A stretch of 49,074 nt of DNA from Promethearchaeota archaeon (GTDB taxonomy: Archaea; Asgardarchaeota; Lokiarchaeia; Sigyniarchaeales; SOKP01), in the NCBI GenBank assembly GCA_004524365.1, contig SDNL01000002.1, positions 1-49,074 on the forward strand, read 5' to 3'. The position numbers were made by a program, and so were the translations under genes. Shown here piece by piece: positions 2,927 through 13,422 of this stretch. Below the pieces are notes generated by a model. The model searched no databases, was not told where the DNA came from, and was given only the letters and a program-made list of their open reading frames with translations. Each line of letters begins with the position of its first letter. Positions within the stretch are counted from its first letter, which is position 1.

Positions 2927-4057
2927 ATGGCAGAAAAAAACTATTCAATTGACCCTTGGTCCAGTTCGAACATTTTGGAAGAGGATTATGATAGATTGAT
3001 CAATAAGTTTGGAATAGAAAGGATTAATGATATTATGAGAGAACGTTTCAAGGATCATCGATTTATTAGGAGGAAAGTTATATTTGGAAATCGAGATTTA
3101 GACGAAATTTACAAGGCGATAGATAAAGATAAAAAATGGGCTGTAATGTCGGGGATTAAACCTTCTGGTCCTTTTCATTTAGGGACTATGACTACGGCAT
3201 TAGAAATAGTTGAATTCCAGTCTCTTGGTGCCAAAGCGTATTATTGTATTGCAGATATTGAAAGTTATGAAGACAATGGAATCCCCTACGAAGAAGCTGA
3301 AAGCACTGCTGTTGATAACTTAGCAGATATCTTAGCTTTAGGCTTAGATCCCGAAAATGCATATATATATCGACAAAGTGAAGAACCAATTGTAAAAGAC
3401 GTATGTTTTAAAGTTTCAAGACTTGTTACAAATAATATGCTTAAAGCAATTTATGGAAAAAAAACATTCGGTTTATATTTGGCCGCATTAGTTCAATGTG
3501 GAGATATCATCCTTCCACAGATTATGGATGGGGTGCAACCTACTGTTGTTCCCGTGGGAATTGATCAAGACCCTCACATAAGATTAACGAGAGACCTCAC
3601 TCGACGATATTATAAAGAGAAAAAAGTGAACGGAAAAATCATACAAGAGGATTTTTTCTTACCAGGAGCAACATACCATAAACTTCTACCGGGACTAGAT
3701 GGTTCTGAGAAAATGTCAAAGAGAAATCCTAACAGTTATTTTACATTTAATGAACCCCTTGAATCTATAGAGAAAAAAGTACGAAGTGCATTTACTGGAG
3801 GACGAAAAAATATGAAAATGCAAAAAGAGTTAGGGGGCGAACCTCAAAAATGTATGATTTATAAGATATTGACCTATTTTTTCGAAGATGATGATCAACA
3901 ACTTGCAGAAGAATTTGAACAGTGTATTCACGGAGAATTAATGTGTGGTGAACATAAACGTGCTTGTGTTGAAAAGATTATTGAATATGTGAAGGAACAC
4001 CGAAAGAAGAAAGAAAAGAATATAGATAAAGCAAGAGAGATATTAAATATTAATTAA
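2927..4057 (+). CDS. trpS: tryptophan--tRNA ligase (archaeal/eukaryal type)
   Basis: Class I aaRS with a HIGH-like PSGPFHLGT, GIDQDPHIRLTRDL and KMSKS as KMSKR. 376 aa. Confidence 0.8.
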   Translation: MAEKNYSIDPWSSSNILEEDYDRLINKFGIERINDIMRERFKDHRFIRRKVIFGNRDLDEIYKAIDKDKKWAVMSGIKPSGPFHLGTMTTALEIVEFQSLGAKAYYCIADIESYEDNGIPYEEAESTAVDNLADILALGLDPENAYIYRQSEEPIVKDVCFKVSRLVTNNMLKAIYGKKTFGLYLAALVQCGDIILPQIMDGVQPTVVPVGIDQDPHIRLTRDLTRRYYKEKKVNGKIIQEDFFLPGATYHKLLPGLDGSEKMSKRNPNSYFTFNEPLESIEKKVRSAFTGGRKNMKMQKELGGEPQKCMIYKILTYFFEDDDQQLAEEFEQCIHGELMCGEHKRACVEKIIEYVKEHRKKKEKNIDKAREILNIN

Positions 4058-5013
4058 AGCGTGTCTAATTCTTGACCTTGGGTATAAAATGAAGCATCCA
4101 GCGATTTTAAAATTTTTTTAAGTTTTTCAACAAACGGTGAAAAATTCTCCATAAATTCCTTTTTTTCTTGGTCGCTAAGTACAATTGATACATAATAAAC
4201 ACGTTCTTGGACTTCAATTCTGTGTAAATAAGAAAGAAATCCTTTATCAATAGTGAAAAAGTTCTGCTCTTGTTCCTCTTCATCCATTCTCTTCAATAAA
4301 TAAATGTGCTCTTTTATCTTATCCAGAAAATCAAAATATAGCTCTGGTTTGAGGGTATCGGCATAATATTCTGAGATAATTATCCCGTTTTTATCAAATA
4401 AGATAAGCGACGAACAACTAAATTTATCCAAGGAAGTTTCCATGTAAAGAGAAAGCTCAAAGAATTTTCCATCAAATACAGAAAGTCCATATGAAATTAA
4501 CTGTACAATTGAAATTATATCATAAATAGAGGTTTGTTGGAAAAGGATATTAAATGATGTAAACATCTCTTTGATCTTTTCCCTAAGCATTTCAATATCT
4601 TCATTTATTTGGTCATAATTACGAAGTTTTGGATCATATTTATGAAAAGTAACGATTAAGGGAATATTTATTTCATTTTCTATAAAAAAGTCCAATATAG
4701 TGGCCAAATATTCTAATGATTCATCGAATTTTTCCCTATCTTGGATATCTATAGTATATATTAAAAGATTTGTCCCAGCAAAATACACTCCAGGTCGACT
4801 TAAATAAAGTCTCCTATATTTTTCCTGACCACCCATATCCCAGAACACTGTTTCTCGACCGAGAAAGCTTGTCCTCCGATATTCCACTTTGATTGTAGGT
4901 TTAAGTTGGTGAACTTCATCGACAAAATCATATTTTTTATCTAGAGCTGTAAGAATAGATGTCTTACCGGCGTTGTGAAGTCCTGCGATAACTATCTTTA
5001 AAGGATCAACCAT
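4054..5013 (-). CDS. Arf/Rag(Gtr)-family small GTPase with C-terminal roadblock-like domain
   Basis: G1 GLHNAGKTS, switch I KPTIKVE, G3 WDMGGQE, and G4 as HKYD (His as in Rag/Gtr HKxD, not NKxD). The roughly 150-aa C-terminal alpha/beta domain ends FLSYLHRIEVQERVYYVSIVLSDQ...FVEKLKKIL. This parallels the RagA roadblock domain ([21 protein letters not shown]...HFEKLE). At 319 aa it is similar in size to RagA/Gtr1. Confidence 0.6.
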   Translation of the reverse strand: MVDPLKIVIAGLHNAGKTSILTALDKKYDFVDEVHQLKPTIKVEYRRTSFLGRETVFWDMGGQEKYRRLYLSRPGVYFAGTNLLIYTIDIQDREKFDESLEYLATILDFFIENEINIPLIVTFHKYDPKLRNYDQINEDIEMLREKIKEMFTSFNILFQQTSIYDIISIVQLISYGLSVFDGKFFELSLYMETSLDKFSCSSLILFDKNGIIISEYYADTLKPELYFDFLDKIKEHIYLLKRMDEEEQEQNFFTIDKGFLSYLHRIEVQERVYYVSIVLSDQEKKEFMENFSPFVEKLKKILKSLDASFYTQGQELDTL

Positions 5014-5326
5014 TTAATCACTTTTCGTTTGTTAAATAATAAAGTTAAATAATAAAAACTTTTTGAGTTCTATTTTTTATTAATATTTAACTTTATTTAT
5101 ACTATTTAATATTTTTAATGTTTCTTATGAATTATGTATATTTCCATATTTATTTAAACTTATTCCCCAATTCAAAAAATAATATTGATAGATTCTTAAA
5201 AATATTTGCATAAAGGTCTTAATCTTCAGAAAATCTAAGTCTAAAATCTCTCTTATGCTTAAGTTAACATAATAACTTTAAAGCGTTTTTTTCTTATTTA
5301 TATCTTAATTAAAGAAATAATAAGGA

Positions 5327-5749
5327 TTATTCTCCTATAATCGTACAATAGATTTTTCTTGTTCTACTCTTCTCATCAAATTCTAAGTAAATTATTTGTT
5401 GCCACGTGCCATGGACGACTTTTCCATTTTGAACTGGAAAAGTTTCGGAAGTACCGATGAGAAAGGAGCGCAAATGTCCTGCTCCGTTATGATCCCCCCA
5501 TGTTTGATGGTGTGCATAATCTTTATTATAGGGGATTATTTTTTCGAGAAATTCTTCTATATCCGTTTTCATTAATCCTGGCTCATTCTCCGTAGTTGAG
5601 ATTCCCCCCGTAGAGCCCGCTACATGAACATTCACTAATCCGTCGCGTATACCACTTTCATTTACGGCTTGCTGAACTTGAGAGGTAATATCATGAATAT
5701 CACATTTGGGTTGGGTTTGAATATTAAATGTTTTTATTTTTACTGTCAT
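5327..5749 (-). CDS. YjbQ/UPF0047 family protein (secondary thiamine-phosphate synthase family)
   Basis: HVAGSTGGISTTENEPGL...DHNGAGHLRSFLIGTSETFPV..GK...GTWQQI.YLEFD is the typical YjbQ pattern. 140 aa. Confidence 0.8.
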   Translation of the reverse strand: MTVKIKTFNIQTQPKCDIHDITSQVQQAVNESGIRDGLVNVHVAGSTGGISTTENEPGLMKTDIEEFLEKIIPYNKDYAHHQTWGDHNGAGHLRSFLIGTSETFPVQNGKVVHGTWQQIIYLEFDEKSRTRKIYCTIIGE

Positions 5750-5879
5750 TTTTTAGTCTCTATTGAATAAATTAAATTTAAATGTAATTAAATAAGGATA
5801 ATGGTAATAATTAATGCATTTTTTTAAATTTAAGTTAGAAAAACTATTATTAATTTAATAAATTTATTTCATCTTTTCA

Positions 5880-6917
5880 TTAATCTTTTTCTTTAATACA
5901 TGATTCTAAACTCTTTATTTGCTTTAGGATGGCTTTTGGAAGGCTTTCCTCTTCGGCGTCATTTAAAATCAGAATTTTGGACAAAACAAGAAGCTCTTTT
6001 TGGTATATTCCTTCTATATTGCTCCATCCCTTACTTTTGGCTTCAATACAGATAAAATTATTTATCCTCTTTTTTCTCATACAAGTATAATTCTTACAAT
6101 TTAAGCAATTTTTAGGAGTAAAATAAGCATCTCCATTCCTGAGAAAAATTGAGAACTCCCCCAAATTTTTATTATCTAATATTATCCAATCAGAATCTAC
6201 GACTCTGAAGGGTATTTTTAATTGATATAGGTATTTCTTTAACATTTTTGTATTAAGTCTTCTATTCAATTCAGAAGATGACTGTTCTGGTTCGAAATAG
6301 TCCTCACATGTATATTTAATATTATTTTTATTATTCACTATATTCATAAGAGGGATGAAATTTATAACAAAATGATCATTAAGTTTACCTTCCTTCATAT
6401 TCTTTCTAAAAAGTGAGCTAATTTGAGAAAAGACACTTTTTTCATCAAAAATTTTATTGAATTCAAATTTATGTGTGCTTAGTAAACTAAGAAATTTACT
6501 TGTGGAAAAATAAGCATTTTTAATATCTTGAACGGTTTTATCTTTTAAAATAATGCAAAAAAGGATGGTGATAACAGGTAGTCTAATGATAATCTCTTTA
6601 TAATAATCAAGCATTTGCTCCACATTATCTTCTGAAATAAATACAATTACTGCTTCAGCACCGGTATAATACATTGTTCTTACAAAAACCCGTTCCAATT
6701 TACAAGAAATATTCCAAAGATAAAAATCATAAATTTTATTATAAGGAACTTTAGAAATATTTACTCCAATAGTATTCTTATTTTTAAGAGAGAATCCTGT
6801 TTTACTAACTATTTCTTGAAATCTATCCTTTATTTGCTCCACTCCTCCTAAAAGTAAGATTTTTTTCTTATAATATTTCCTTGCAGAGCTTCTACTTTTT
6901 TGCGAAGAAGTCACCAT
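5880..6917 (-). CDS. Rab/Ras-fold pseudo-GTPase with Cys-containing C-terminal domain
   Basis: The G-domain scaffold is retained: KILLLG, switch-I-like TIGVNISKV, YYTGAEAVIVF. The nucleotide motifs are lost. The P-loop is GGVEQIKDRF, DxxGQ is NISCKLE, and NKxD is ILKD. The C-terminal roughly 170 aa contains CLNCKNYTC...FIC. The ATG at 6917 is preferred; the ORF track starts at an upstream GTG (6932). Confidence 0.55.
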   Translation of the reverse strand: MVTSSQKSRSSARKYYKKKILLLGGVEQIKDRFQEIVSKTGFSLKNKNTIGVNISKVPYNKIYDFYLWNISCKLERVFVRTMYYTGAEAVIVFISEDNVEQMLDYYKEIIIRLPVITILFCIILKDKTVQDIKNAYFSTSKFLSLLSTHKFEFNKIFDEKSVFSQISSLFRKNMKEGKLNDHFVINFIPLMNIVNNKNNIKYTCEDYFEPEQSSSELNRRLNTKMLKKYLYQLKIPFRVVDSDWIILDNKNLGEFSIFLRNGDAYFTPKNCLNCKNYTCMRKKRINNFICIEAKSKGWSNIEGIYQKELLVLSKILILNDAEEESLPKAILKQIKSLESCIKEKD

Positions 6918-7153
6918 AGCTTCATTCCCCACAGAATATATTAATATTTACAAGTTTTTTATTATGAGCAATTATCAATAAATGTAAAGCATAGATAATA
7001 AATATGGAACTTTTTTCAATTTTTTCTTAAGATCTTGTTCGTTTGATTATCTTTTTTTTAATTATTAACTAGCAAAAAATTACTATTTTTTTGGGCTTTA
7101 ATAATAAAGAATAAGTATTTTCAATAATTTAGTTTAGTAGGAGCTGATTAAAT

Positions 7154-7597
7154 ATGGGACCCAAAGTTGGCTACGATAAATACAAGGAGTTTATAGATAA
7201 GATTCATGATAAGAAAAATGATATCCCGGAATACATTTCTATAATCATTCGAGAAGGAAAGAAAAAGGATATTATTGATGTTAAAATAAGAAAACTTGAA
7301 TCTAATATTTTAAAAATAATGGCACACGAACAAGAAAAGAAAGGATGGTACACTCATTCTTATCATATCCCTTTAAAAAACCTCGGATTGGATGATGATG
7401 CAAAAAATAAAAACATTTTACCATATCTAAATCATCCCGCCAAAATAATGAGTGATAAGACAACACAAGAAACCGTGAAGGAACTAATAGAAAAATATGT
7501 AGAAGTTATAAGTGAGAGAAAAAAACATTTCTTCCATACTGCGCGCTATAAAGCTAAAAAAGACTATAGTGGCGGGCGTAAAATGAAAGGATTTTAA
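7154..7597 (+). CDS. hypothetical protein (charged, helical)
   Basis: 147-aa ORF with an ATG start and GGAG 11 nt upstream. I recognise no family motif. Confidence 0.5.
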   Translation: MGPKVGYDKYKEFIDKIHDKKNDIPEYISIIIREGKKKDIIDVKIRKLESNILKIMAHEQEKKGWYTHSYHIPLKNLGLDDDAKNKNILPYLNHPAKIMSDKTTQETVKELIEKYVEVISERKKHFFHTARYKAKKDYSGGRKMKGF

Positions 7598-7624: not shown

Positions 7625-8296
7625 TTAAGAATCTTTTAGAGTTAGAAAAACAGTTTCTCCACTCATTACATATTCTAACACAATGTTAAATTTCTTTTCC
7701 ATATATTCCGATATAGCATTAATTATTCCTTGAGCAATACCTATTATGAATTGAGGGGATATTGTATCTTTAATTACGATAGTTTTATCTTCAGACTTAA
7801 TATCTTCTATATCTGAAATATTTTTAAAAATAGGGGCAATTTCATTTTTTAAAACTAATTTTGGATCTATTTTAAAAGAGGCACCTAACTTGATTACTGG
7901 TTCCCTTCTTTTATTCCATAAATAATGACCAATTTTTTTTCCTGCTATAAATAAATTTTCAGGTTCTTGAATTTCTGATAATAATAGAGATAAAAATGCT
8001 AAAAATTCCTTTGAAGGGTCTTTTTTTGCTTTAATTTTTTCAACTTTTTTTATTATTTCTGCTTGTGGCATTTTTGTTTTTACAACCACAGAGGATTCAT
8101 TATCTTTCACGAGAATAATTCTTTCAATACCCCTGACGTTATAATTCTTATCTACATAAACCGTTACAAAATGATCGTTATGAGAAACAAGTATTGGTAC
8201 TATTGATGATAAATTTAATTCAGTTTCTATGGATTTCGGGTCTATTTCATAGGTTATGATTTCACCACAAGTACATTCGAATCTAATTGATGTCAT
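7625..8296 (-). CDS. hypothetical protein: N-terminal Cys-pair module plus possible V4R-like C-terminal domain
   Basis: 223 aa. The N-terminus (FECTCGE...HNDHFVTVYVDKNYNVRG) shares a pattern with ORF 37341-38195. The C-terminal half (FIAGKKIGHYLW...VIKDTISPQFIIGIAQGIINAISEYM...VFLTLK) loosely fits a V4R/Bet3-like layout. Confidence 0.5.
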   Translation of the reverse strand: MTSIRFECTCGEIITYEIDPKSIETELNLSSIVPILVSHNDHFVTVYVDKNYNVRGIERIILVKDNESSVVVKTKMPQAEIIKKVEKIKAKKDPSKEFLAFLSLLLSEIQEPENLFIAGKKIGHYLWNKRREPVIKLGASFKIDPKLVLKNEIAPIFKNISDIEDIKSEDKTIVIKDTISPQFIIGIAQGIINAISEYMEKKFNIVLEYVMSGETVFLTLKDS

Positions 8297-8379
8297 TTTT
8301 TGAGTTGTTTCTATTATTTCATATATATTAGTATATCCTTATAATTCTTAAAAGGTTTTTTTTAATTAAAAAAAAAGAA

Positions 8380-9642
8380 TTAGAAGAATTGAATAATATT
8401 TAAGTAAAACAAGAAAATTGAAAGGAGGATTGCCAATGGGAACACAATGTAATAAAATTTTGTTTTGAACGGTCTTTCTAGGATAGGCATTTTTATTCTT
8501 AAATAAAGCGCTATTATCCCAGCGGGTAACATTGCAGATATTAAAACAATTCCAATCCCTGTAGCTGCGAAAATATCAACAATTAATCCTTCTGTTAAGG
8601 GGATCAACAGAGTCATTATACTCCCAATTATTACTACAAGAATAATAGTAACTCCAATATTAGCAATATGATAGCCCTTTTTAGTTTTATTGAATATTTT
8701 TGGTAGACTATCGTCTCGAGCCATTACTCTTAGTTGATGAATACAAGTGGCTAAAACTGCAAAACAAGTCCCTGCTGCTGAAAAGGCCGCAAAGAATGAA
8801 AGGATAGGGGTTGGGATCCCTGTATTTGAAGCAATAATAACAAAAGGATTGGAAGTTCCCAGATCATTAATTCCTACTAGACTTGATGCTCCTAAGGTGA
8901 CTAAAATATAAACACCTAAAATTGAGAGCAAAGCTATTAAAATTCCTATTGACATTTTAAGATTTCCTTTAATCAATGAATCCTTTTTATTTAATTCTTC
9001 AGTAAAAATCAACATTACTTCAAACCCTAATAAAGCCCAAATAGAAAGGTTTATAGTTTCTTGGAAACCAGAGAAAGTCAATTCATTTACAGAATAATTA
9101 GCTACATCTGCATTCAAAAGCATCAAAATAGATACAATTATTAAAAAGACTATCTTTATTAAAACCCATCCAAGCGCCAAAAAACCAAAAAGACGAGGCG
9201 AAACGATTCCTGATAATAATCCGAAGAGAATTAAAAAGAGCAGAGTAAAAACGACCAACATTAAATTATCTTGAACACCAAAAATCCCTAATGTAAAATT
9301 TGCAGTTAAAAAAGCTAAAAGAGAAGAGATAAATAAATAACCGATATAATATAAAATTCCAACTAAGGTTCCCCACTTTTTATTAACTGCGCCTCCTACA
9401 TAAGAATATGGGCCACCACTCTTGGGAAACATACTAACACATTCAGCATACGACAACCCTGCAGTTAGAAATAATAGCCAACTTATTACAACGGCCAATA
9501 TTGAAAAAATACCAGAACTATTTGCCCACTTGAGAGGATCTCTCCAAATTCCTGATCCAATAACTGTAGTCATACCGATTGCGATGATTCCTAAAAAATT
9601 AATCTTATTTTTATTTTGTTTTTGAGATTCGTTATTAGACAT
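8380..9642 (-). CDS. APC-superfamily amino-acid permease
   Basis: 420 aa with about 12 hydrophobic segments and the N-terminal GIIAIGMTTVIGSGIW motif typical of APC transporters. Confidence 0.75.
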   Translation of the reverse strand: MSNNESQKQNKNKINFLGIIAIGMTTVIGSGIWRDPLKWANSSGIFSILAVVISWLLFLTAGLSYAECVSMFPKSGGPYSYVGGAVNKKWGTLVGILYYIGYLFISSLLAFLTANFTLGIFGVQDNLMLVVFTLLFLILFGLLSGIVSPRLFGFLALGWVLIKIVFLIIVSILMLLNADVANYSVNELTFSGFQETINLSIWALLGFEVMLIFTEELNKKDSLIKGNLKMSIGILIALLSILGVYILVTLGASSLVGINDLGTSNPFVIIASNTGIPTPILSFFAAFSAAGTCFAVLATCIHQLRVMARDDSLPKIFNKTKKGYHIANIGVTIILVVIIGSIMTLLIPLTEGLIVDIFAATGIGIVLISAMLPAGIIALYLRIKMPILERPFKTKFYYIVFPLAILLSIFLFYLNIIQFF

Positions 9643-9822
9643 AGAATAATATATGTTTCTTTATTATTTAAAGCTTTCTTTGAAATATTTGTTTGAAATA
9701 AATATGAATAATAACGATTCAAGGAATTTACTTATGATTCATCCAATTATAATAAGTAGAATAGAAATTAGAATTTAAATAAAAAAATATAATAAAAATG
9801 TGTTAATTATTTTTGGAGATTT

Positions 9823-10491
9823 TCATATTTTCTTGTTTTTCTTTTCTTCTCGAATATATTCGGGTTTTATTTTCGTAACTCTTGTCATGATCTTTGCTTG
9901 TAATTTGAGTATGATTTTCTCAATCTCTTCAGAAGGGACGGTAATGTTAAAATTATATATGGGTTCTTTATCTTCATCTGGTTCTGGTTCAGCATTAATG
10001 AATTTTACGTCCTTAGTCTGTTTAAAACTTATAACTAAGTTAATTACACTACTAAGTTTATTCTCTATTGTGATTTTTCTAGTTATTTCATCATATCGAG
10101 TTCGCACTTCTACATGTTCTTTCGGTTTTATAGCATCTTCAAATGAAATTTTGGGGTTTCCTTCTTTTATTTCAATAATATCATCATTTATTTCAATATC
10201 AGCATCAATAATTTCTTCGGAAAGAATTTTATTACCTATGGTCGCCGAGGTGGAAAGAAATAGAAAAGGTAATCCCCCCTTATAGAGAGTGAGGGGTGAA
10301 CCGCTTGGGAGTTCTTTAGGCTCTCCCTTCTTATTCAAAACATATTTTATTTTACAATCATGGATATGTTTATTATTTGAAACGGATGTTGCATTGTATT
10401 GTATATCCGCTTTACGGTCAATTTTAAAATCCGCATCAGTTTTAAACCATTCTAATTTTATTTTCTTACGAGACGGAATGTTTGCTTTCAT
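9823..10491 (-). CDS. DUF4139-like C-terminal-part protein
   Basis: LTLYKGGLPFLFLSTSATIGNKILSEEIIDADIEI resembles the distal part of DUF4139 proteins. The ATG at 10491 is preceded by GAGGTG with a 6-nt spacer. The ORF track uses the GTG at 10500. Confidence 0.5.
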   Translation of the reverse strand: MKANIPSRKKIKLEWFKTDADFKIDRKADIQYNATSVSNNKHIHDCKIKYVLNKKGEPKELPSGSPLTLYKGGLPFLFLSTSATIGNKILSEEIIDADIEINDDIIEIKEGNPKISFEDAIKPKEHVEVRTRYDEITRKITIENKLSSVINLVISFKQTKDVKFINAEPEPDEDKEPIYNFNITVPSEEIEKIILKLQAKIMTRVTKIKPEYIREEKKNKKI

Positions 10492-10496
10492 TTTTT

Positions 10497-10503
10497 TCAC
10501 CTC
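10497..10503 (-). promoter_or_regulatory. Shine-Dalgarno motif GAGGTGA for the downstream gene
   Basis: The reverse complement of tcacctc (10497-10503) is GAGGTGA. It overlaps the TGA stop (10502-10504) of the upstream gene, and an ATG lies at 10491. Confidence 0.55.
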
Positions 10504-11251
10504 ATAATGTTAAATTTTTCATTCTTTGTGTTTTTTTCATTCGATTTAATTCGCTCATCATTTCATTTCTTAGGCCAGATAATTGTTCTTGGTTTATAGA
10601 TGTGGGTTCCATTGGAGGGCTCCCAGGAGCTCTAGTACCGATTGATTGTCTTGTAGGAAGTTCAAAAATCGCGAATCCAAGTTCCACATTTTCATATGAA
10701 AAACTTGTTTGATTATTAACTACGAGATAGGCTTCAAGTTCAGCCGAGTTTCCATCATCCCTAACATTTACATTTAATGTTGTCTCCCATCTAATACGTA
10801 AATCGGTGATAAAATATTGAATCTGTACAATTACTTCACCCTCTTTCTTCGCATTGATTATAAAATCAAATGCCCCCTTCATATCATCGTAGGTTCTGTA
10901 TTTACTAGCTTCACAAAGACGATTTATATCCTCTCTAATTTCTCTTGTAAAATCAATTGATTGCGAAATAATGGTATTTGCTGCACTTTTCTCTCTATTG
11001 ATAATTTGACGAGTGGTTTCTGGATCGGGTAAGGAAACAACAGTTTGTTGAAGGTTAAACAAATCTTTATCTTGTTCTGGGTTTAAATAATTTAATTTAA
11101 CACTTGCGGAGTTGGGATCAAATGAAGCGGGAATGTTTTGAATTTGAAATTCGTTTGTGCCCCTTTGAAGGCTTACTTTTATTTCTCGTTCGACAATACC
11201 GCCACCGTGGTTAAAAATTATTAACTTTTTCACTTTTGGGTCGATTAACAT
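10502..11251 (-). CDS. DUF4140/DUF4139-like N-terminal-part protein
   Basis: The N-terminus (KLIIFNHGGGIVEREIKVSLQRGTNEFQIQNIPASFDPNSASVKL) fits the DUF4140 pattern. IRWETTLNVNV......LEAYLVVNNQTSFSYENVELGF fits the start of DUF4139. Confidence 0.5.
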   Translation of the reverse strand: MLIDPKVKKLIIFNHGGGIVEREIKVSLQRGTNEFQIQNIPASFDPNSASVKLNYLNPEQDKDLFNLQQTVVSLPDPETTRQIINREKSAANTIISQSIDFTREIREDINRLCEASKYRTYDDMKGAFDFIINAKKEGEVIVQIQYFITDLRIRWETTLNVNVRDDGNSAELEAYLVVNNQTSFSYENVELGFAIFELPTRQSIGTRAPGSPPMEPTSINQEQLSGLRNEMMSELNRMKKTQRMKNLTL

Positions 11252-11363
11252 AGCTTTTATCTAATTACACTTTTTTATGATTAATCAATAAATAGAATGA
11301 ATAATTTAAAAATGTATTATATAAAAACACCAAAAGTTAATATTTCAAACAAGAATTTAGCAA

Positions 11364-12233
11364 TCAATCCTTTCTTAAAGGCATACCTTCCATAGAAATA
11401 AATTCTTCTTTTTCTGGTTTGATGCAGCGGTAAGGATTTTCCTCTTCCCTTATTTTACGCCCAAAAGTTAGATATCCTGAATGACCAATCATTCTACTCT
11501 TAGGTCTAGTGGCGTTTTCCTTGATTTGCATTTCTCTCATTAATAATTCAACAGTTTTTATTTCTATAAATTCATTATCTCTAAGAGCTTGAGTGGTCTT
11601 TTTAGCTTGCTCAATAGTGGGTGAAAAGGATACTAAAGAGCCACTTAACTTTAAAAAGGGTCTAATTTTTTCAATGGTTGCCCATGGAGTTGGCATATCT
11701 AACACTACTGCATCTATATTTTTATGGTTAATATCGCCTTTAAAGATATTTCCATATTTAACGGAAACTATTTCTTCCAGACCTGCTTTTTTTATGTTAT
11801 TTTTTGCTTGTCGCAGGGACTTTTCTCTAATATCATAGGAAAAAACCCTTCCGTTCGGCTTTACATAATTTCCTAAGATACATGTTAGAGCTCCTGAACC
11901 AGCTCCTATTTCAATTATATTCCAACCGGGCCCAATACCAGTATACATTAAAATTAGTCCTGCATCCTTGGGATAAATAATTTGAGTCTTTCGGTGCATA
12001 TGAACTACAAATTCAGAAGGAAGGGGTTCGAGCACTCGAAATTTATATCCTTGTTCATCATGAGGTCTCGAAAATACGCATGATCCATAGGGTTTACCAA
12101 TAATATCATCGAATTCAATGATTCCTTTATGTGTATGAAATGATTCCCCTTCTCTAGCTTGAACGACCCATCTCCGTCTCTCATCAAGAATTAAAAAGAG
12201 AAAATCATTGTTTTTAATAGTTTTTGATTCCAT
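11364..12233 (-). CDS. trmI: tRNA (adenine-N1)-methyltransferase (TrmI/Trm61 family)
   Basis: HTHKGIIEFDDIIGKPYG, IIYPKDAG, SAM motif EIGAGSGALT, and VVLDMPTPW. Start moved to the ATG at 12233. The longer ORF (to 12401) adds 56 low-complexity residues and overlaps the divergent gene at 12363. Confidence 0.8.
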   Translation of the reverse strand: MESKTIKNNDFLFLILDERRRWVVQAREGESFHTHKGIIEFDDIIGKPYGSCVFSRPHDEQGYKFRVLEPLPSEFVVHMHRKTQIIYPKDAGLILMYTGIGPGWNIIEIGAGSGALTCILGNYVKPNGRVFSYDIREKSLRQAKNNIKKAGLEEIVSVKYGNIFKGDINHKNIDAVVLDMPTPWATIEKIRPFLKLSGSLVSFSPTIEQAKKTTQALRDNEFIEIKTVELLMREMQIKENATRPKSRMIGHSGYLTFGRKIREEENPYRCIKPEKEEFISMEGMPLRKD

Positions 12234-12362
12234 ATTTAATTGAGAAGAACTACTTTTATATATATTTAAATAATTCAAAAAGAAAAAATTTAGTCCTTTT
12301 TGATCGATAAAATTTAAGTTTAATTGTAAATTTTCACCCTTAAGAATATTTGATGACTCTTT

Positions 12363-13223
12363 ATGAATCAACAAAATAACCTTCAATCTCAGATTAGTCA
12401 AGCTAAAAATAAAAGAGATGAACTAAATCAAAAAACGAAAGATTATATCAAATCTCTTCAAGAGGTTGAGACAGAGATTCAAGAAGCTCTCGATCAAGCT
12501 AAGCAATTGAAGGAGAAGAGAAATCGGTGGAATGAACGTGTTGCGAAGTTAAAGGATAAAAAAATCGAATATAAAAACTTATTAAGTGACTTAATCAGTG
12601 AAAATAAGCAATTAGGCGGAAATAGAAGGCAGAGAGAAGCGGATTATATATCCGGAAAAAAGATTGATAAAAAAATCGAAAACCTAGAACGACAAATTGA
12701 AACAGAAAATCTCACAATTGCCGAAGAAAATGATATTGTAAATCAAATCCAAGAATTAGCACAAAAGAAAAAAGAATTATTAGAAGTTGACACCAATCAA
12801 GAAGTTTTAAAAAATGAGAAAAAAATAGAGATTGTAAAGATTAATTTAGATAAGATTTACGAGCAATTGAATAAATGGAGCAATAAGAGCCAGAAATATC
12901 ATAAAAGAATGCTGGAGCAATATGATAAAGTCGATGAATTAAAAGAGAAAAAAAATAATATCGAAGAAGGTCTTATAGAAAACAAGAAGAAAGCTGATGA
13001 TTATCATGAGAAATTTATCCAATTGCGCAGAAAACAGAAGAAAACTTCTGGTGGACGTCCATCCTCTCGTAGAAAATCGAGAAGACGATATCATAAGAAA
13101 AGGGATAAGGAATTAGAGAAAATTAAGCAAGACAAATTAGAAACCGCCTTGAAAAAACAAAAAGAAGGAAAAAAGCTCAATATTTACGAAGCTCGCCTCA
13201 TTTTAGAAAAAAATAAGCAATAA
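12363..13223 (+). CDS. archaeal coiled-coil protein (COG1340-like), basic C-terminal tail
   Basis: 286 aa, K/E/Q-rich heptad-type sequence throughout, with an RRKSRRRYHKKR tail. Confidence 0.55.
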   Translation: MNQQNNLQSQISQAKNKRDELNQKTKDYIKSLQEVETEIQEALDQAKQLKEKRNRWNERVAKLKDKKIEYKNLLSDLISENKQLGGNRRQREADYISGKKIDKKIENLERQIETENLTIAEENDIVNQIQELAQKKKELLEVDTNQEVLKNEKKIEIVKINLDKIYEQLNKWSNKSQKYHKRMLEQYDKVDELKEKKNNIEEGLIENKKKADDYHEKFIQLRRKQKKTSGGRPSSRRKSRRRYHKKRDKELEKIKQDKLETALKKQKEGKKLNIYEARLILEKNKQ

Positions 13224-13422
13224 GACTTACCAGTTCATTTCTTTTTAGTTAAATCTTTTTATTGTTTTTATTTAATCTTAAAGCGATTAAATAGTATTAA
13301 TGAATATACTTACAATACTATCTAGGGTTTGTTAAAAAAATTTTATTTAATATCCTACGCTAATTAAAGTATCATTTTTATAACGTATATTAAGAAAAAG
13401 AATATAAAATAAATTGAAACAT

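Follow-up and report, generated by a model that had tools for sequence, protein, structure and literature searches.

A predicted Rab-like pseudo-GTPase with a Cys4 C-terminal domain, conserved beside a YjbQ/UPF0047 gene in Asgard archaea

What does a small GTPase do once the motifs that bind its nucleotide have been replaced? This question is raised by an open reading frame (ORF) at 5880-6932 on the reverse strand of contig SDNL01000002.1 (assembly GCA_004524365.1) from a Promethearchaeota archaeon, hereafter called the target. The window, that is, the whole stretch of DNA that was analysed, comprises 49,074 nucleotides (positions 1 to 49,074 of the contig) and has a G+C content of about 30%. 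In an earlier description made from the sequence alone (the original prediction), the target was proposed to be a Rab-derived pseudo-GTPase, which kept the motifs of the fold and lost all nucleotide-binding motifs, and which might serve as the catalytically dead partner of a Rag-like GTPase encoded nearby. The best explanation of the data collected since, which is considered probable without being firmly established, is that the target is a two-domain Asgard pseudo-GTPase that acts as a nucleotide-independent adaptor and is most likely co-transcribed with the adjacent YjbQ/UPF0047 gene.

The ORF is present with the translation given in the original prediction and encodes the Rab-like domain followed by a Cys4 C-terminal domain (C-domain); all parts of it described below lie on the reverse strand. 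It has 350 codons if it is read from the GTG at 6932. Reading from the in-frame ATG at 6917 results in 345 amino acids, and because this length matches that of the 100% identical database protein P0001 and those of the orthologues, ATG 6917 rather than GTG 6932 is probably the true start. A database search resulted in 56 relatives at E<1e-54, with 36-64% identity and lengths of approximately 341-361 amino acids, except for one fragment of 229 amino acids. The family was observed in 56 species-level Asgard genomes, mostly of Promethearchaeota, in a scan using one genome per species. Named database relatives of the target are all Promethearchaeota, and those of the target and its neighbor genes taken together are all Asgard archaea, mostly Promethearchaeota (Lokiarchaeia), with the taxonomic labels of some metagenome-assembled genomes being uncertain. 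A second copy of the family was looked for in the window, and none was found. For the motif counts, an alignment of 55 full-length orthologues was used, in which 28 columns are invariant and 37 are nearly so.

Missing motifs could also be caused by a sequencing or assembly artefact, or by the decay of a pseudogene, and they are the sole point in favor of this explanation. It is excluded for practical purposes, because the 55 orthologues, constant in length at 35-64% identity, share the same replacements with invariant substitute residues, because the gene is located at the same locus in 56 species-level genomes and because the fold is predicted with confidence.

The Ras-superfamily (Rab-like) G-domain fold covers residues 21-182 (6387-6872) and was identified using the family profile, Pfam, AlphaFold2 (AF2) and Foldseek. 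The window protein by itself matches the Pfam family Roc weakly (E=0.004, under the cut-off). Across the family, Roc matches 53 of the 55 members (best 3e-8) and Ras matches eight. In a comparison of the family profile with the Protein Data Bank (PDB), Rab23 was the best match (E=2.3e-8), together with Rab11, Rab22, Rab35 and Ypt31/32, over profile positions 10-183. The top matches, around 30 in number, are Rab/Ypt proteins throughout, and the Thorarchaeota Rab (PDB 7ezb) is matched at E=1.4e-4. The AF2 model of the full protein has a predicted local distance difference test score (pLDDT) of 87.9 and a predicted template modelling score (pTM) of 0.84, and shows the canonical order b1-a1-b2-b3-a2-b4-a3-b5-a4-b6-a5 in residues 21-181. 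With this model, Foldseek retrieved MglA, Ran, Rab8 and Rab23 at probability 1.0. The resemblance to Rab that had been read from the consensus motifs is thus far above chance, and the profile search and structure prediction that had been suggested as checks confirm the G fold.

The Rab family motifs of Pereira-Leal and Seabra are RabF1 (IGVDF), RabF2 (KLQIW), RabF3 (RFRSIT), RabF4 (YYRGA) and RabF5 (LVYDIT). In the target family, RabF1 (as IGVNI) and RabF4 (as [FY]-Y-x-G-A) are recognizable, RabF2 is partial, with L-W alone kept, and RabF3 and RabF5 are unrecognizable. No prenylatable C-terminal Cys (CC, CXC or CAAX) is present at the end of the protein, which reads ...SCIKEKD, and C345 is positioned inside the folded C-domain, at least five residues before the C-terminus. 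The domain is also not of the Arf/Rag type represented by Pfam Gtr1_RagA or Arf, as the family members match Roc and Ras only. The label "Rab-like" is thus warranted, but there is no ground for placing the domain in the eukaryotic Rab family proper.

The nucleotide motifs were mapped via a HMMER alignment to Rab23 and counted over the 55 orthologues. The P-loop of the target reads GGVEQIKD (6825-6848), and in the family the G1 motif GxxxxGK[ST] has been replaced by G29-G30-x-E32-x-[Y/I/L/F]-K35-[D/N], with G29, E32 and K35 each found in 55/55. The position of the second Gly, residue 34, is Gly in none of the orthologues and Y, I, L or F in 53. Position 36 is never Ser or Thr and always Asp or Asn. 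The switch I or RabF1-like segment, K52-x-[NT]-I-G-V-N-I-S-K (6750-6779), has invariant K52, G56, V57 and S60, and the position of the switch-I Thr is occupied by Asn (38 orthologues), Thr (9) or Ser (4). At the former G3, W73-N74-I-x-C77 (6702-6716; WNISC in the target) stands where W-D-x-x-G is expected, and its W, N and C each occur in 55/55. At the former G4, F-C-I-I-L-[EKND] (6543-6560; FCIILK in the target) replaces x-G-N-K-x-D, which removes the residues that confer guanine specificity, and a SAK-like G5 motif is not apparent. The strings quoted in the original prediction were all located in the ORF, those of G1, G3 and G4 at the positions given here.

The claim that all nucleotide-binding motifs are lost holds for the G1, G3 and G4 determinants and goes too far for the P-loop, in which every orthologue keeps the first Gly (G29) and the Lys (K35). 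The accompanying claim, that the pattern is the signature of a pseudo-GTPase and not of random divergence, agrees with the conserved fold and the fixed motif loss in 55 orthologues. Alignment of the orthologues had been proposed as a further check; it shows motif loss in 55/55 and no close orthologue with a canonical P-loop. As far as can be judged from sequence, the target is a pseudo-GTPase: a conserved and selected protein in which the G-domain fold is kept and the G motifs are lost.

Because the substitute residues are themselves invariant, the pocket was remodelled and did not decay. Approximately 11 of the 16 invariant G-domain residues are located in or beside the G1-G3 and switch segments, and the mean column entropy is 1.1-1.4 over residues 21-133, compared with 2.24 over residues 134-182. 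The old nucleotide/switch face is, by these measures, the most constrained surface of the protein. Since the substitutes are invariant and the constraint is highest there, this face would carry a new fixed job, either in binding a partner or ligand or in contacts within the protein.

In a Walker A motif, the absence of a side chain at the second Gly leaves room for the beta-phosphate. Ordinary GTP binding by the target family seems unlikely, because this position is bulky, because the acidic E32 lies inside the loop and because NKxD is lost. The bulky residue and the invariant Glu probably fill or block the phosphate site, and the protein would no longer cycle between GTP and GDP states. It would work as a constitutive, nucleotide-independent adaptor, in which one partner may be held by the conserved face that is formed by the P-loop and the two switches and with which Rabs usually bind their effectors. 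A joint metal site of C77, C126 and C209 in the old pocket was also considered and is unlikely; the nearest outgroups keep C77 alone.

According to the main rival explanation, a nucleotide or a phosphorylated small molecule still binds in the remodelled pocket (G-G-x-E-x-x-K-[DN], N74, C77), which would make the target a locked or sensor-type pseudo-GTPase without normal GTPase cycling. Several features are consistent with this. The P-loop never varies at its Lys or its first Gly, the constantly Asp or Asn residue 36 and the constantly Asn residue 74 could both contact a metal, and constraint is stronger on the pocket residues than elsewhere in the domain. In addition, the P-loops of the close outgroups P0184 and P0187 still end in K-T or K-S, and the YjbQ family is linked to phosphorylated metabolites, by annotation alone. 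However, a large side chain at the second Gly in 53/55, an acidic Glu within the loop in 55/55, the absence of NKxD and of any evident SAK-like G5, and a switch-I Thr position that is mostly Asn all disfavor such a ligand, and this explanation is regarded as rather unlikely, if still the most serious of the alternatives.

The part of the protein that follows the G domain would offer a second surface to the proposed adaptor. Using AF2 and the alignment, the G domain was seen to be followed by one more strand (residues 187-194) and a linker that carries the motif C209-x-D-Y212-x-E-P (6252-6386). Their pLDDT is approximately 80-93 in the full-length model and 44-60 when modelled without the G domain. 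Since they are confident in the full-length model only, the strand and linker probably pack on the G domain. The core of the C-domain, residues 228-350 (5883-6251), is specific to Asgard archaea and has no known fold. When modelled alone it reaches a pLDDT of 88-94, with one helix, four strands, the Cys loop and two helices, and it is predicted to fold independently.

The Cys loop, CLNCKNYTCMRKKRINNFIC (6048-6107), also one of the strings quoted in the original prediction, contains C276-x2-C279-x4-C284-x10-C295, a presumed Zn-binding site. None of these four Cys residues varies within the family or among 13 divergent members of the superfamily, and C345 is nearly invariant in both. The loop is rich in Lys, with the family consensus C-x-x-C-K-x-K-K-C-x-K-x-K-K. 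For the C-domain there is no Pfam or NCBIfam family, no PDB sequence-profile match, no PDB fold match by Foldseek (best E=0.95) and no match among the viral models of BFVD. Similarity to a known Zn-domain fold, such as a zinc ribbon or treble clef, was not found in PDB, BFVD or Pfam. A roadblock, longin or other known fold was rejected, given the lack of any PDB profile, PDB Foldseek or BFVD match. The same searches bear out the earlier description of a Cys-bearing C-terminal domain of unrecognized fold. In the proposed adaptor, the basic Cys4 domain, probably with bound Zn, would provide the second contact, with a protein, a membrane or a nucleic acid.

The C-domain is not restricted to the target family. 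With the C-domain profile, 134 of 1.84 billion cluster representatives were matched at E<1e-3, of which 75 reach E<1e-10; a 90%-clustered database gave four matches and added nothing. Many members of this superfamily are 300-450 amino acids long, with an N-terminal Ras-family domain followed by the C-domain, and clear passes for Pfam Ras are observed for P0190 (74 bits), P0191 (97 bits) and P0225 (104 bits). Other members consist of the C-domain alone with Pro-rich tails. The canonical GxxxxGK[ST] is present in 2 of the 63 representatives that have an alignable G-domain start. P0296 retains G1, DxxG and NKxD; P0225 retains G1, with DxxA in place of DxxG and no NKxD. The degenerate P-loops among the 63 representatives include the target-like type "LG.xE..K" (around 20), the Thorarchaeota type "G.D..LQAGF" (around 22) and the type "GD..ID.W".

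All superfamily members with a named source are from Asgard archaea: Prometh-/Loki-, Hel-, Hermod-, Hod-, Thor- or Frey-archaeota. On the basis of these matches, the C-domain defines an Asgard-wide superfamily, in which its fusion partner is almost always a Rab-like domain whose P-loop is degenerate. The target family is one branch of a pseudo-GTPase group that probably derives from a live Rab-like GTPase that was already fused to the C-domain. The simplest history is the fusion of a live Rab-like GTPase with the C-domain, followed by repeated or early motif loss and diversification.

A further question is with which partner the adaptor would work, and here gene order was compared over 52 complete loci, each from a different species. 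The order of the conserved block is TrmI/GCD14, in some cases a tRNA_bind gene, a basic protein of 140 amino acids on the opposite strand, the target and YjbQ/UPF0047, followed by a gap of approximately 550 nucleotides, a Rag-like GTPase and then TrpRS on the opposite strand. In the window, the YjbQ/UPF0047 gene, assigned by Pfam and synteny, is found directly downstream of the target at 5327-5749 (reverse strand). Its frame starts at most 12 nucleotides from the target stop, or overlaps the target, in 45/52 loci, which suggests that the target and YjbQ form an operon; in the loci L003 and L005 the called genes overlap by 4 bp. YjbQ also directly follows the distant target-like genes P0184 and P0185 (at most 30% identity; loci L006 and L069). 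YjbQ is thus the tightest conserved genomic link of the target, and if the target shares a pathway with one of its neighbors, YjbQ is a likelier candidate than the Rag-like GTPase. In the proposed mechanism, the target would most likely be co-transcribed with this abutting gene. To our knowledge, the biochemical role of YjbQ/UPF0047 is unsettled.

Two genomes have the block without the target. The loci L007 (GCA_048881805.1) and L008 (GCA_048887225.1) contain the full TrmI-TrpRS block, including YjbQ and the Rag-like gene. At the site of the target (6928-7084 in L007 and 6952-7084 in L008), approximately 130-160 nucleotides separate the 140-amino-acid gene from YjbQ, which suggests that the target was cleanly lost or relocated.

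Some of these observations weigh against a nucleotide-independent adaptor that works with YjbQ. The invariant P-loop Lys, the Asp or Asn at the Mg-ligand position and Asn74 could allow some binding of a phosphate ligand. Instead of a partner site, the conserved switch face could be a surface that contacts the linker or the C-domain within the same molecule. Also, YjbQ is located at the same place in the two genomes without the target, and part of the adjacency of the two genes may be inherited gene order.

The original prediction was right to place a Rag-like GTPase at a distance of two genes and on the strand of the target: the gene at 4054-5013 (reverse strand) is a syntenic neighbor and encodes a Rag/Gtr-like GTPase that matches Pfam Arf and Gtr1_RagA, keeps its G motifs intact and has a C-terminal domain. 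Its best PDB match is 8yl2_A (E=4e-35), and RagA and Gtr1 are matched at approximately 1e-11 over the G and C-terminal domains; 8zla_A is matched as well. The entries 8yl2_A and 8zla_A were deposited only as 'GTP-binding protein', and a literature search on the closest structures, 8yl2, 8zla and 9m28, resulted in no relevant paper.

From this neighborhood, the original prediction drew the idea that the target is the catalytically dead heterodimer partner of the Rag-like GTPase, comparable to RagA-RagC or Gtr1-Gtr2. The neighbor is truly Rag/Gtr-like, and its gene lies downstream of the target, on the same strand and approximately 1 kb away, in 51/52 loci. Rag/Gtr dimers form through their C-terminal roadblock domains. 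No roadblock or longin domain was found in the C-domain of the target in the PDB fold search (best E=0.95, as above), and a comparison of this domain with the C-terminal domain of the neighbor using hhalign gave a probability of 0.2%. In addition, the target G domain is Rab-like and not Arf/Rag-like.

Gene order also argues against a Rag partner. Proximity is weakened as a specific indication by the conservation of the whole TrmI-TrpRS block, and in other genomes a small opposite-strand gene separates the two transcription units. The Rag-like gene is present without the target in L007 and L008, and the outgroup loci L006 and L069 have a target-like gene with YjbQ and no Rag-like gene nearby. 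The Rag-like family, with 701 matches at E<1e-20 and 55-60% identity, is also about 12 times larger than the target family (701 vs 56). Asgard Rag-like pairs of one operon are predicted to form heterodimers in a GTPase survey (PMC10933270), which is in favor of the idea. On the grounds of domain content, G-domain type and synteny, the dead Rag partner was nevertheless rejected and is held to be very improbable.

The block also includes genes for tRNA-related proteins, and a role as an RNA- or tRNA-linked zinc-finger factor was therefore weighed, in which the basic Cys4 domain would bind nucleic acid and act with TrmI, the tRNA_bind protein and TrpRS. The Lys-rich Cys loop and the presence of TrmI/GCD14, the tRNA_bind protein and TrpRS in the conserved block fit such a role, as does one stand-alone C-domain gene that adjoins a CCA-adding enzyme gene. 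Nevertheless, L007 and L008 have the block but not the target, the paralogues P0296, P0225 and P0258 have unrelated genomic contexts that share no neighbors, and the C-domain matches no known nucleic-acid-binding fold in PDB or BFVD. There is little to expect from this explanation, which stands about as low as the Rag partnership. The two-domain adaptor linked to YjbQ thus remains the preferred reading.

The other genes of the block show some variation. The conserved basic protein of approximately 140 amino acids (7154-7597, forward strand) has no Pfam match and is divergent from the target in 49/52 genomes; it has 43 invariant positions across four distant loci and is also present in the two genomes without the target. 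In the window, four genes on the reverse strand (7625-11251) are located between this gene and TrmI (11364-12401): an unknown protein of 223 amino acids, an amino-acid permease, an unknown protein of 225 amino acids and a protein of 249 amino acids with a weak DUF4140 match. In other genomes, this interval holds the tRNA_bind gene alone, which the window lacks here.

The spacer between YjbQ and the Rag-like gene (5014-5326) is AT-rich in the window and has no ORF of at least 32 amino acids. Elsewhere, the same spacer encodes a conserved helical protein of 66-83 amino acids on the opposite strand (L001 12308-12508, L003 9489-9719 and others). This small gene was considered as a ubiquitin-like link and rejected, as the protein is helical, not ThiS-like, and absent from the window. 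In L003, a leucine-rich-repeat protein of 918 amino acids (10613-13369) is inserted between YjbQ and the Rag-like gene. In L001, L010, L011, L012 and L022, the target and YjbQ are separated by approximately 2.8 kb, which in L001 contains two sulfotransferase genes (9403-11683). The outgroup locus L006 encodes a live Rab-like GTPase followed by a protein with a zinc ribbon and leucine-rich repeats (4706-6327).

Small ThiS/ubiquitin-like genes ending in Gly-Gly adjoin C-domain family genes in two unrelated loci (L067 3604-5798 and L069 5619-7041). The order in L067 is a pseudo-Rab gene with C-domain (330 amino acids), the ThiS-like gene and a stand-alone C-domain gene. These neighbors hint at a possible link to ubiquitin-like modification. 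Some superfamily members, P0190, P0191, P0203 and P0218, have extra conserved C-terminal tails beyond the C-domain. The tail types of the paralogues read ...EA.TLLRNY.IQF..G.LPYSLY..LKERYEKI and ...LRD.MLRELRRLK..MRG, and the latter is also observed at both ends of stand-alone C-domain proteins, together with Pro-rich segments.

The small GTPases of Asgard archaea have been studied as forerunners of the eukaryotic membrane-trafficking switches, and dead small GTPases that serve as scaffolds have so far been documented in eukaryotes. The wider proposal is put forward tentatively, and is slightly more doubtful than not. It states that Asgard archaea contain a large, lineage-wide group of Rab-derived pseudo-GTPases built on an undescribed Cys4 domain, in which G motifs are kept only in rare members (P0296, partly P0225). 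Dead-GTPase scaffolds would then be well developed in the archaeal relatives of eukaryotes, and the re-fixed pocket (with its new loop, N74 and C77) may be a ligand or partner site that works with YjbQ/UPF0047. If this is true, Rab-like switches had already been converted to nucleotide-independent modules on the archaeal side of eukaryogenesis, and the known domains would be extended by a Cys4 domain that is specific to Asgard archaea and occurs in at least six of their named lineages. How a G domain is put to a new use could be tested directly on natural pairs of live and dead members (such as P0296 vs the target clade), and the poorly understood YjbQ/UPF0047 family would gain a conserved genomic companion.

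Proteins that resemble parts of the target are known from several systems. Rab-like pseudo-GTPase modules occur inside larger eukaryotic proteins; the tail of Plasmodium MyoF reportedly contains such a Rab-like domain, in which the nucleotide motifs are degenerate and which serves as an integral module for interaction. The fold and the degenerate motifs are as in the target, and the protein context and lineage are unrelated. The Rag/Gtr proteins (RagA-RagC, Gtr1-Gtr2 and the neighbor at 4054-5013) share with the target a two-domain organization of approximately 310-350 amino acids with an N-terminal G domain, and the target gene is found near a Rag-like gene, whereas its G domain is Rab-like and its C-terminal domain is not a roadblock. 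With the Asgard Rabs, such as the Thorarchaeota Rab (7ezb), the target shares the lineage, and Rabs are its best sequence and fold matches, with a RabF1-like IGVNI and a RabF4-like [FY]YxGA kept. Unlike the target, the Asgard Rabs described so far have intact G motifs and are single-domain proteins or fused to roadblock or longin domains. A survey sorts 74 GTPases of MK-D1 into Rab-, Rag- and MglA-like classes (PMC10933270), and the term pseudo-GTPase and degenerate G motifs were not found in the sections of it used here. Full-text literature searches likewise retrieved no description of an archaeal Ras-superfamily pseudo-GTPase.

Close parallels are eukaryotic pseudo-GTPases such as CENP-M and the pG1 and pG2 domains of p190RhoGAP, which are presumed or have been shown to be nucleotide-free scaffolds or interaction modules (PMC4080450; reviewed in PMC10211241). 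Like these, the target keeps the small-GTPase fold and has lost the G1, G3 and G4 determinants. Unlike these, it is archaeal, a predicted pseudo-GTPase and fused to a new Cys4 domain, and its P-loop, in which the Lys is kept, has become a new invariant motif; the loops of CENP-M and p190RhoGAP are deleted or randomized. The principle of the pseudo-GTPase is known; what is new is the archaeal setting, the invariant loop, the C-domain and the size of the family.

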